From the NCBI GenBank assembly GCA_000004695.1, contig CH709150.1, positions 1 through 2,216 on the forward strand: a stretch of DNA of 2,216 nt, given 5' to 3'. A program made the translations under genes and the position numbers. Of this stretch, positions 1 to 2,216 are shown piece after piece. The first letter of the stretch is position 1, and each line of letters opens with the position of its first letter. The notes beneath the pieces were generated by a model that worked only from the letters and a program-made list of their open reading frames with translations, did no database searches and had not been told where the DNA came from. Source of the DNA: Dictyostelium discoideum. Its lineage: Eukaryota.

Positions 1-171
1 TGAATTGGTATTAGATGAGAACATAGGTTCTTTCATGAATCTTGTAAAGGCTAAGGAAATGTTGTTGATTTGATCCTCCATTGATTTCATTCTTAAATCA
101 AAGGATTCAGCACTATTAGAGGCAGAGGTACTACTACTAGAGGCTTCATTATTATTAACAGTGGTAGACAT
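1..171 (-). CDS. 5' partial CDS (N-terminal 57 codons) of an Asn/Ser-rich hypothetical protein. It continues beyond the window start.
   Basis: Reverse complement of 1-171 reads ATG TCT ACC ACT GTT AAT AAT AAT GAA GCC ..., i.e. MSTTVNNNEASSSSTSASNSAESFDLRMKSMEDQINNISLAFTRFMKEPMFSSNTNS, with no stop. An in-frame TAA lies two codons upstream of the ATG (RC of 175-177), so this is the first Met. The context is A-rich (aaaatATGt). Third-position A/T codon bias fits an AT-rich eukaryote. The ORF track misses it because it runs off the window edge. Confidence 0.5.
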   Translation of the reverse strand, partial: MSTTVNNNEASSSSTSASNSAESFDLRMKSMEDQINNISLAFTRFMKEPMFSSNTNS

Positions 172-288: not shown

Positions 289-390
289 GGAATTCCCAAA
301 TAAAATAAATCAAATTTTTTTAGTTTTTAGTGCCACTATTTATACGTTTTTATTTTCTTAAAAATTTCGCAAAACTCAAAAAAATAAGAG

Positions 391-492
391 TTTTCGACCC
401 TTCACAACTTTGTGCATAGTGTCGGTTCGGAATTTTTCAGTTTTTCGACCTTGCGCAATGATCGCGTCATTGTGCCGGTTCGAAATTTTTAC
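391..492 (+). repeat. Two tandem ~50-bp CpG-rich subrepeats inside TIR-L, with ~70% mutual identity.
   Basis: Unit 1 (391-440) is ttttcgacccttcacaactttgtgcatagtgtcggttcggaatttttcag. Unit 2 (441-492) is tttttcgaccttgcgcaatgatcgcgtcattgtgccggttcgaaatttttac. They share the tttcgacc and gtg.cggttcg.aattttt blocks. Each contains GGTTCG(A/G)A, which resembles the tRNA B-box GGTTCGANTCC in 8 of 11 positions. About 12 CpGs fall in 130 bp, against almost none elsewhere in the AT-rich DNA. Confidence 0.7.
453..475 (+). other. Hairpin-forming palindrome in subrepeat unit 2, with a 9-bp stem (including one G-T/U wobble) and a 5-nt loop.
   Basis: gcgcaatga-tcgcg-tcattgtgc. Pairs are g453-c475, c454-g474, g455-t473, c456-g472, a457-t471, a458-t470, t459-a469, g460-c468 and a461-t467. 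Confidence 0.5.
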
Positions 493-516
493 TTTTCTTT
501 CGAAAATTTTTTATTC

Positions 517-537
517 TTCGAATGTTATAGAACATTC
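517..537. promoter_or_regulatory. Heat-shock-element-like array in TIR-L: GAAnnTTannGAAnnTTC, four contiguous pentamer units of which three are perfect.
   Basis: ttcGAAtgTTataGAAcaTTC. GAA at 520-522, TTa at 525-527, GAA at 530-532 and TTC at 535-537, all at exact 5-bp phasing. It also forms a 7-bp inverted repeat gaatgtt/aacattc. Confidence 0.5.
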
Positions 538-581
538 TAAAAAATTATCTTAAATATTTGGGAAATTCAAATAAATAAATG

Positions 582-932
582 TTATTCATAATATATATAT
601 ATATATGATAATATAAATACGTTTGATAGTGGATAAGTGCTTGAATACTTGATTTGCATCCCATATCTCAACCTACCAGTCATAATTCTTGTAATGAATA
701 GATCATTAACAATATCAGTTTGATTCCTAAGGAGTAACAACTGATTCAACATAGAGCGATTACCGTTTATTGTGGAGAAGGCTAACGGAGGTTTGTGCTT
801 GAACAGATGTGTAAGATAATCCATGAAAACAACTAAAGTAATGTTTGCTGGATTCAAAGAGTTCAAAGTTTGGTCAATACTTCTTGGAATGTTTCCAGTA
901 TTTGAGGAAACATGTGACGATGATAACGACCT
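582..932 (-). CDS. Hypothetical open reading frame of 116 sense codons with no ATG at its 5' end (first Met at codon ~36). Possibly cargo, or a pseudogene fragment.
   Basis: The minus-strand frame is open from the TAA (RC of 933-935) to the TAA (RC of 582-584). It reads RSLSSSHVSSNTGNIPRSIDQTLNSLNPANITLVVFMDYLTHLFKHKPPLAFSTINGNRSMLNQLLLLRNQTDIVNDLFITRIMTGRLRYGMQIKYSSTYPLSNVFILSYIYIYYE. The 'M' in the ORF track at 864-866 is actually a TTG (Leu). GC is ~35-40% and CTG/CCG/CGC/GGG/AGG/CTC codons appear, which differs from the flanking gene usage. The last 7 codons only read through the (AT)n tract. Confidence 0.3.
   Translation of the reverse strand, partial: RSLSSSHVSSNTGNIPRSIDQTLNSLNPANITLVVFMDYLTHLFKHKPPLAFSTINGNRSMLNQLLLLRNQTDIVNDLFITRIMTGRLRYGMQIKYSSTYPLSNVFILSYIYIYYE
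595..617 (+). repeat. Direct repeat copy 1: atatatatatatgataatataaa. This is the inner-end motif of TIR-L.
   Basis: Identical 23-mer at 1140-1162. Both are followed by a[t/a][a/g]cg. Confidence 0.8.
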
Positions 933-1780: not shown

Positions 1781-1878
1781 TTAAAAATTTAATTTATTAT
1801 ATTAAATATATATATATATATATATTATGAATAACATTTATTTATTAGAATTTCCCAAATATATAAGATAATTTTTTA

Positions 1879-1896
1879 GAATGTTCTAAAACATTC
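1879..1896. promoter_or_regulatory. Heat-shock-element-like array in TIR-R: GAAnnTTCnnaAAnnTTC.
   Basis: GAAtgTTCtaaaacaTTC. GAA at 1879-1881, TTC at 1884-1886, aAA at 1889-1891 and TTC at 1894-1896. This is the mirror copy of the TIR-L site. Confidence 0.5.
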
Positions 1897-1934
1897 GAAG
1901 AAAAAAAAAATTTCGAAAGAAAAGTAAAAAATTT

Positions 1935-1942
1935 CCACGTGG
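1935..1942. promoter_or_regulatory. CCACGTGG palindrome (CACGTG E-/G-box core) within the unique central block of TIR-R. It can pair with downstream ccaagtgg as a hairpin.
   Basis: ccacgtgg(ggcgataattatg)ccaagtgg has 7/8 complementary arms. This 45-bp unit replaces the two subrepeats present in TIR-L. Confidence 0.3.
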
Positions 1943-2057
1943 GGCGATAATTATGCCAAGTGGCAAAAACAGTTTTGTGAAATTTTTAAGAAAATAAAAA
2001 AAATAAAAATAGTGGCACTAAAAACTAAAACAATTTGATATATGGAATTCCAACTAT

Positions 2058-2073
2058 GGGCGGGTGGGATGGG
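2058..2073 (+). other. Canonical G-quadruplex motif GGG-C-GGG-T-GGG-AT-GGG, 7 bp outside the right terminus of the element.
   Basis: gggcgggtgggatggg has four G3 runs with loops of 1, 1 and 2 nt. It is extremely unusual in >80% AT surroundings. Confidence 0.8.
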
Positions 2074-2126
2074 ACTAATATATATAAATTTTTAATATGA
2101 AATATAATTTAATAAATTTTTAATCT

Positions 2127-2155
2127 ATTTTATCATATATATATATATTATGAAA
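2127..2155 (-). repeat. Extra inverted copy of the TIR inner-end motif (ttcataat(at)n gataa) located outside the element in the right flank.
   Basis: 2127-2155 is ttttatcatatatatatatattatgaa. Its reverse complement, ttcataatatatatatatatgataaaa, matches 585-613 (ttcataatatatatatatatatgataatat). It is also a direct repeat of atatatatatattatgaa inside TIR-R (1813-1832). Confidence 0.6.
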
Positions 2156-2216
2156 TTTGGACTACAGTATTTAAGAAACCACCAGATTTTTCACCAATGA
2201 TTCTTTTATCGTAGAA
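2148..2216 (-). CDS. Possible 3' end (last 22 codons plus TAA stop) of a minus-strand gene that enters from beyond the window end.
   Basis: RC of 2151-2216 reads TTC TAC GAT AAA AGA ATC ATT GGT GAA AAA TCT GGT GGT TTC TTA AAT ACT GTA GTC CAA ATT TCA, then TAA (RC of 2148-2150). This is FYDKRIIGEKSGGFLNTVVQIS*. Codon choice (GGT, AGA, TTA) matches the left-flank gene. The open stretch is only 22 codons, so evidence is weak. Confidence 0.3.
   Translation of the reverse strand, partial: FYDKRIIGEKSGGFLNTVVQIS

Follow-up and report, generated by a model that had tools for sequence, protein, structure and literature searches.

The first 2,216 nucleotides of contig CH709150.1 in the Dictyostelium discoideum assembly GCA_000004695.1 (forward strand; hereafter the window, by which we mean this whole stretch) are AT-rich and contain no long open reading frame (ORF), and they are D. 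discoideum DNA from a cluster of DIRS-1 tyrosine-recombinase retrotransposons. Here, we are highly confident that 391-492 forms the central, GC-rich module in the left inverted terminal repeat (ITR) of one DIRS-1 copy, that the partner repeat further right belongs to a different, older copy, and that the asymmetry between the two repeats is a polymorphism between copies. DIRS-1, or Tdd-1, was described in 1983-85 (among others by Zuker et al. 1984 and Cappello et al. 1985) and has been reviewed (PMC5633606, PMC7192593); in the literature its two ITRs are already reported to be non-identical and both to be promoters. The element itself is therefore already known, and its mid-ITR variants are a small descriptive detail.

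On the minus strand, one can read the window from right to left as the 3' end of a copy B (2216->1781: recombinase end, internal complementary region [ICR], and right ITR), a 1.16 kb segment that is part of neither copy (1780->622), and the 5' end of a copy A (621->1: left ITR, leader, and ORF1). A Pfam search of the short ORFs of the window, which are fragments too short for the purpose, gave nothing informative, and identity was taken from protein homologues and the contigs that encode them. The protein of the ORF fragment at 582-866 (-) matches D. discoideum exclusively, and the contigs coding for the matched proteins are DIRS-1 clusters with RVT_1 and Phage_integrase ORFs, together with an ORF of 195-221 amino acids that starts MSTT(V/I)NNNDASSSS. 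RVT_1 and RT_RNaseH are present in the related full copies of loci L003, L007, L009, and L011 (numbers with L denote the related DIRS-rich loci, about 215 kb, used for comparison), and the position of the reverse transcriptase/RNase H ORF falls beyond the window.

Copy A is recognized from its coding sequence. From the ATG at 171-169, which is followed by MSTTVNNNEASSSS..., the minus strand translates as MSTTVNNNEASSSSTSASNSAESFDLRMKSMEDQINN..., the start of DIRS-1 ORF1 (putative GAG); this 5' part of ORF1 (1..171) is 84-98% identical to the ORF1 start of other DIRS-1 copies, and ORF1 homologues were detected in five Dictyostelium species. The left ITR, or left long terminal repeat (LTR), occupies 289..621 (-), with its outer terminus TTTATATTATCATAT at 617-603 and its inner boundary GGAATTCC at 296-289, and it aligns with left ITRs adjoining ORF1 in L003, L004, L005, L006, and L007. 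Going inwards one therefore meets first the ITR (621->289) and then the ORF1 start codon at 171 (-), as in DIRS-1, and positions 1-618 as a whole are 98% identical to three DIRS-1 copies in L007. With the N-terminus of DIRS-1 ORF1 encoded at 171->1 (-), the left repeat is identified as the left ITR of a copy exiting the window leftwards.

Copy B enters from the other side. The last 22 codons and the stop of its tyrosine recombinase ORF lie at 2148..2216 (-); the peptide read from 2216-2148, FYDKRIIGEKSGGFLNTVVQIS, is identical to the end of the L003 ORF at 4589-5104, which carries PF00589 (Phage_integrase), and the ORF thus ends just inside the right ITR, as expected of DIRS-1. Between them is a region internal to the right ITR (2052..2154, -), delimited by inverted repeats and by alignment of right ends, which comprises a G-rich box (2058-2073) and the ICR, one part of which is complementary to the right terminus (~2078-2121) and the other to the left terminus (~2122-2154). 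An inverted-repeat search pairs 1778-1819 with 2078-2119 (74%) and 585-613 with 2126-2154 (86%), so that the ICR is complementary to both outer termini, in the same layout as in other right ends. Such a region has been described for DIRS-1 (PMC7192593) and, since the literature gives it as exactly complementary to the termini, that of copy B has decayed. The right ITR itself (1781..2051, -), a decayed short variant, has its outer terminus TTAAAAATTTAATTTATT at 1781-1798 and GGAATTCC at 2044-2051; its best match is the short-variant right ITR at L003 11262-10868 (85%), and it aligns end to end with right ITRs of D. citrinum (~81%). Because the last 22 residues of the recombinase, and then the ICR, adjoin it, we identify the right repeat as the right ITR of a second copy, one exiting rightwards. 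Copy B is the more diverged of the two (best-match identity of 85% vs 98% for copy A).

Both repeats are thus DIRS-1 ITRs, 98% (left) and ~85% (right) identical to those of other copies, and nothing categorical sets them apart. Since a right ITR is by definition an inverted left ITR and the two copies have the same orientation, the two repeats form a facing inverted pair, which the earlier note took for the terminal inverted repeats (TIRs) of one element. That explanation would have a single non-autonomous element of ~1.75 kb whose TIRs differ by design and whose subterminal repeats bind a transposase or recombinase to confer directionality. The two long facing inverted repeats (124 nt at 95% and 63 nt at 83%) and the variable segment between conserved blocks are what one would expect of it, and short repeated motifs within a terminal inverted repeat are indeed a likeness to TIR DNA transposons. 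However, DIRS-1 coding sequence continues outwards from both repeats, by which the single element is already refuted. In a TIR transposon the outer termini face away from the interior, whereas the conserved DIRS-1 termini, TTTATATTATCATAT ending at 617 and TTAAAAATTTAATTTATT starting at 1781, both point at the middle segment, and 622-1780 therefore lies outside both elements. This supposed interior is a patchwork of an ORF3 fragment, satellites, and 611 bp without a match in other loci, and no mobile unit with 622-1780 as its interior and both repeats as its bounds was seen in the ~215 kb of DIRS-rich loci. Unlike TIR DNA transposons, DIRS-1 is a tyrosine-recombinase retrotransposon, the repeats come from different copies, and no transposase is encoded. 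We regard the single element as scarcely credible; the asymmetry is visible since two tandemly oriented copies stand 1.16 kb apart.

Alignment of ITRs from the DIRS-rich loci divides each repeat into two conserved blocks and a variable GC-rich module between them. The outer block consists of the terminus, (TA)n, the palindrome GAATGTTCTAGAACATTC, and TTTTCGAAAGAAAAGTAAAAATTT, and the inner block of TTTTTGAGTTTTGCGAAATTTTTAAGA, GTATAAATAGTGGCAC, and GGAATTCC. In copy A, the inner block includes the TATA box of the left-ITR promoter (TATAAATA, 337..344, -), which directs transcription leftwards into ORF1 and downstream of which the transcription start is located; the right ITR has a degenerate TATA box. 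The sequence GTATAAATAGTGGCAC is retained in D. discoideum, D. cf. discoideum, D. firmibasis, and D. citrinum, and reads GTATAAAAGGCGTAGC in D. dimigraforme. The palindrome of the outer block, found in both ITRs, resembles a heat-shock element (HSE), for which at least three alternating GAA/TTC units at 2-bp spacing are needed; the family consensus GAAtgTTCtaGAAcaTTC has four perfect units, and each window copy (520-542 and 1874-1896) has one mutated unit, in copy A a GAA changed to TAA. With at most one mismatch, GAANNTTCNNGAA matches the window seven times vs 0.95 expected, and all but one of the matches are at these two places. In D. citrinum (L009 ~9690-9715), the position of the palindrome is occupied by a CpG-containing near-palindrome, GAATGCCGAAACGACATTC, and the heat-shock element may therefore not be conserved across species.

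The hexamer TTCGAA does occur five times, as the earlier note had counted (479, 499, 517, 1894, and 1912), vs 0.86 expected, and none of 200 shuffles reached five. Those at 499 and 517 and both on the right are within the conserved outer block, where one per side directly abuts the HSE palindrome; the third on the left (479) is the GGTTCGAA arm of unit 2 of the module.

Experimental work on the ITRs is available. Both drive green fluorescent protein more strongly than the actin15 promoter, and the ITR has been put to use in Dictyostelium both as a strong promoter and as a knock-down cassette (PMC4482531); the promoter of the right LTR has also been demonstrated elsewhere (PMC3950715). The DIRS-1 messenger RNA (mRNA) contains little of the left LTR, and the sense mRNA is reported to include nearly the entire right LTR (PMC3950715). 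Heat inducibility of the ITRs is mentioned in PMC3950715 with reference to Zuker 1983 and Rosen 1983, and the title of Zuker et al. 1984, as it is cited in PMC2175303, has the ITRs contain a heat shock promoter. Methylation of the right LTR by DnmA is reported in PMC3950715 with reference to Kuhlmann 2005.

The module of copy A consists of two tandem units, as had been noticed from the letters, and they are 72% alike (38 identical positions in 53 aligned columns). Unit 1 (391..440) is the inner copy of a duplicated module of ~51 bp, with a decayed palindrome, and is present in all long-variant copies of the ITR; unit 2 (441..492) is the outer copy, with the palindrome intact. The module lies 47-148 bp upstream of the TATA box and ~30 bp downstream of the HSE palindrome. 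The predicted hairpin of unit 2 was found at 453-475, where GCGCAATGA-TCGCG-TCATTGTGC forms a 9-bp stem (453-461/467-475) that includes one G.T pair, and it is lengthened by an outer stem in which TTCGACC (444-450) pairs with GGTTCGAA (477-484). The 52 nt of unit 2 have a folding energy of -12.3 kcal/mol as DNA (z = -4.5) and of -20.4 kcal/mol as RNA (z = -4.5), which none of 200 shuffles equalled; unit 1 folds no better than its shuffles (z = -0.25 as DNA and -1.6 as RNA). Enrichment in CpG is real (observed/expected 1.9 vs 0.9 for the whole window), with 9 CpG in 391-492 and 10 in the 130 bp of 368-497, where about 12 had been claimed.

The right-hand counterpart (1934..1964) had been described as an unrelated unit with a palindrome able to pair. 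The two arms, CCACGTGG at 1935-1942 and CCAAGTGG at 1956-1963, are present, but their pairing is no better than that of shuffles (z = -0.9). Nor is the unit unrelated: it aligns to the short form of the module, CCACGTGGCACGATGACGCGATCATTGTGCCACGTGG, which holds the hairpin core of unit 2, with an 8-bp deletion and several substitutions. On this alignment it is homologous to the unit 2 hairpin, as a decayed short-variant palindrome (CCACGTGG...CCAAGTGGC). The repeat at 1781-2051 thus belongs to a different, older copy with a decayed short variant, and because of this the asymmetry is a polymorphism between copies.

A census of 24 D. discoideum ITR copies, located by BLAST anchors in the DIRS-rich loci, places the two window repeats among their relatives. 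Three forms of the module occur. The long form (~100 bp) has two units and comes in two sub-types, that of the window and L007 (CGAACCGGCAC...) and that of L003 (CGAAACGACAC...); the unit 2 motif reads CGTTTCGAA in L003-type copies, and the L007 copies share GGTTCGAA with the window. The short form (~50 bp) has one unit, the CCACGTGG palindrome, with a 16-bp stem that is perfect except for one G.T pair, and its canonical copy in L002 folds with z = -4.3 as DNA and -5.0 as RNA. A third, one-unit form (CGAACCAGCACAATGTACCAAATTGTGAAAG; n = 2, L001 ~1065-1110 and L002 ~6071-6115) resembles a deletion between the CACAATG of one unit and the CACTATG of the other; its inner flank is unlike that of standard DIRS-1 ITRs. 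The number of 50-bp units thus varies from one to two among genomic copies, the comparison that the earlier note had proposed. Short and long forms differ in the two palindrome arms at once (CCACGTGG/CCACGTGG vs CGAAACGA/CGAGGTCG, alignment columns 7-14 and 36-43), and this is a single symmetric event. The short variant was considered as a separate old subfamily and rejected: short copies are not monophyletic by neighbour-joining of ~190 nt of flanking ITR blocks, a result in which recombination and poor resolution are inseparable. We found no description of the long and short mid-ITR variants, the one-unit recombinant, or the tandem-duplication origin in the DIRS-1 papers that we consulted, the original sequence papers not being among them.

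Module form is independent of side. When side is called by the neighbour of the ITR, that is, ORF1 leader for left and ICR for right, the long form is found in 10 left and 8 right ITRs and the short form in 2 of each. Both variants on both sides are a further point against a single element with TIRs differing by design, and directionality as the meaning of the asymmetry is not supported. In four intact elements (L007 9551-14347, L003 976-5545, L011 ~6139-10916, and L009 ~9601-14293) the two ends agree in form, and in that of L007 the 100-bp modules of the two ends are identical; as L011 is from D. cf. discoideum and L009 from D. citrinum, this concordance covers long-form and other-species elements only. 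Such agreement is consistent with the Cappello model, whereby every round of retrotransposition regenerates the left ITR from the right one (PMC7192593). The alternative that had been offered to directionality, recombination between family members, came close to the truth, the difference being variation or exchange among members of the family.

The ITR alignments also contain a few irregular copies. At L003 13450-12982 and L006 5270-4794, ITRs in left context (with the ORF1 leader next) have an outer terminus of the right-end type, TTTAATTTATTAAATTATATTTTATATTAAATAT; recombination or inversion between inverted ITRs would be expected to produce such copies, as would incomplete repair of the terminus. 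In L004 (~1524-1550 and ~17749-17790), DIRS-1 ITRs are interrupted by further DIRS-1 copies; one insertion is in the outer block, within GAAAAGT/AAAAATTT, and the other in the palindrome AAAACTCAAAAAAAATGAGTTTT beside the module, a pattern that fits the reported preference of DIRS-1 for inserting into DIRS-1.

A reading of the motifs in the units as RNA polymerase III (Pol III) B boxes, the binding sites of TFIIIC, is not supported. The earlier note read GGTTCG(A/G)A in both units as such a motif, matching GGTTCGANTCC in 8 of 11 positions, which would make the ITR a Pol III-related site or one like the extra-TFIIIC (ETC) sites. One unit does share the heptamer GGTTCGA with these, and GGTTCGAAATT in unit 2 (477-487) matches at 8 of 11; unit 1 (GGTTCGGAATT) matches at only 7. 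A B box standing alone can be a weak target of TFIIIC in D. discoideum; GTTCRANNC is the minimal motif of this species, and for a site to function an A box (TRRYNNARYNG) must also lie 30-60 bp upstream of it (PMC5391098). However, the window has no match to GTTCRANNC, the units reading GTTCGAAAT and GTTCGGAAT, and its single A-box match (2125-2135, -) is far from the units, with none at the needed spacing on the same strand. Matches to GGTTCGANTCC with at most three mismatches number 11 vs 7.1 expected, a count reached by 22 of 200 shuffles, and the one at 717-727 is better than those in the units. ARAGORN found no tRNA in the window, in agreement with the earlier note, and Rfam (E <= 10) gave four sub-threshold chance matches, none of them in 391-492. 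Among copies the motif is not conserved, reading CGTTTCGAA in the L003-type copies and being absent from the short variant and from other species, and GGTTCGAA is accounted for by the palindrome, of which it forms the 3' arm opposite TTCGACC. The likeness of the units to a B box is chance, and a Pol III role for the ITR is one that we would all but discount.

The earlier note had also observed that variable subterminal repeats often lie where promoters sit, and here its eye for location was good: the units are flanked by the HSE palindrome and the TATA box, in an ITR for which promoter activity has been demonstrated (PMC4482531, PMC3950715). Because of this position, and because whole ITRs are strong promoters, we read the module as likely to be an upstream part of the RNA polymerase II (Pol II) promoter of the ITR. 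The module arose by tandem duplication of a palindromic unit of ~51 bp, of which the outer copy stayed intact and the inner one decayed, and the palindrome would probably serve as a dyad-symmetric binding site. Where the module lies in a right ITR, the DIRS-1 mRNA would also include it, in its 3' part, and the outer unit could fold there as a hairpin.

Other species of Dictyostelium show which features of the module are kept. D. cf. discoideum has a two-unit module of 91 bp. D. firmibasis, D. citrinum, and D. dimigraforme retain both conserved blocks and have, at the position of the module, a shorter GC-rich segment that is different (GCCACGTGTCACG, CGACGTGGCGGCG..., and CGAGGTGG repeats, respectively). 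The two-unit duplication is thus common to D. discoideum and D. cf. discoideum and absent from the other three, and because these carry a different shorter segment, the duplication is young and lineage-specific. A GC-rich block between the conserved blocks recurs in all five species (~40-60% GC, judged by eye, vs ~15-20% in the flanking ITR), and an ACGTGGC-like core is common to the short D. discoideum form, D. firmibasis, and D. citrinum.

Several points weigh against our interpretation of the module. Between species, its place and GC-richness are kept but its sequence is not, and it could be a tolerated, fast-evolving spacer. The stem has no compensatory changes, and at one of its positions pairing is absent from 9 of the 16 letter-bearing copies; since stem changes are mostly one-sided, recent common descent may be all that its conservation within D. 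discoideum reflects. Promoter activity is known from the literature for whole ITRs, from which we infer the share of the module, and the other ends of copies A and B were not recovered, the matching ends of each being deduced from other elements.

Taken further, some of these points would make the module functionless, with the palindrome and the duplication as accidents of slippage or template switching carried along by a successful D. discoideum lineage. The lack of sequence conservation between species, the variation from one to two units, the decay of the inner unit, and the mostly one-sided stem changes all agree with this. Against it stand the GC-rich block at the same place of the ITR in five species and the recurrent ACGTGGC-like core, and we consider a functionless spacer possible but unlikely, preferring a part of the promoter.

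The palindrome might instead act in replication, as a hairpin in the 3' part of the mRNA or in single-stranded complementary DNA (cDNA), or as a dyad site for the DIRS-1 tyrosine recombinase. Folding is strong on either strand (z = -4.3 to -5.0), the short variant swaps both arms symmetrically to give its 16-bp stem, and across 17 copies 74% of cells pair in the palindrome register vs 27-41% with the register slid. The sense mRNA, as reported, carries nearly the entire right LTR (PMC3950715), the replication intermediate is a linear single-stranded cDNA (PMC7192593), and inverted arms of 8-9 bp with a 5-bp spacer are loosely like recombinase core sites. However, two-sided changes in the stem come solely from the single long/short arm swap, and those inside the stem are one-sided, with none that compensate. 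ITRs of D. firmibasis, D. citrinum, and D. dimigraforme have no comparable palindrome there, the recombination junction proposed in the literature is the joined termini and ICR, not the mid-ITR (PMC7192593), and the reported candidate priming hairpin, at 4792-4805, is near the terminus and not in the module. We give little credence to replication in place of promotion, and a role for the hairpin in RNA or single-stranded cDNA is possible but unlikely. Among hairpin variants there are nine transition and five transversion states, and decay of CpG as the source of this variation is suggestive at best. It would be a long shot to go beyond the promoter reading and suppose that the module is a functional cis element (a dyad site or a cDNA-stage hairpin) with arms kept symmetric, the duplication of which contributed to the exceptional expansion of DIRS-1 in D. 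discoideum centromeric clusters.

The middle segment is a composite. DIRS-1 ORF3 is represented at 622..929 (-), outside copy A, by a fragment of the part N-terminal to its recombinase core (ANITLVVFMDYLTHLFKHKPPLAFSTING...), for which all protein matches are from D. discoideum; this fragment matches ORF3 of L002 and L003, and 870-929 matches many loci at 86-96%. Satellites follow at 929-1117, with a tandem 12-bp repeat (ACCTTAAAAATT, ~10 copies) and 11-bp repeats; comparable arrays (~72% alike) are present in other DIRS clusters (L006 3931-4315 and L003 9771-9873). A repeat search detected a DIRS left-terminus remnant of 23-30 bp at 1140-1169: ATATATATATATGATAATATAAA, the outermost DIRS-1 left terminus, is present both at 595-624 and here, where it is isolated and has no ITR. 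The remaining 611 bp (1170-1780), bounded by this remnant and the right terminus of copy B (1781), have 40% GC (locally up to 47%), which is unusual for the genome, and ORFs of at most 66 amino acids; no match was found in the ~215 kb of DIRS-rich loci, Rfam, plasmids, phages, or E. coli genomes.

Upstream of the TATA box, the U3 regions of retroviruses and LTR retrotransposons carry tandem enhancer repeats, the copy number of which varies within a family. The DIRS-1 module is similar in that its short unit, too, is duplicated ahead of a TATA box in a terminal-repeat promoter and varies in copy number among family members; it differs in that the unit is a palindrome, the terminal repeats are inverted and not direct, and the enhancer role is only putative. 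For those annotating Dictyostelium genomes, one correction follows: in DIRS-1 clusters, the facing right and left ITRs of neighbouring copies mimic a small TIR transposon, and apparent "asymmetric TIRs" there should not be taken for a new element or a Pol III site. The module exists in at least three side-independent forms and differs between Dictyostelium species, which could guide dissection of the ITR promoter.

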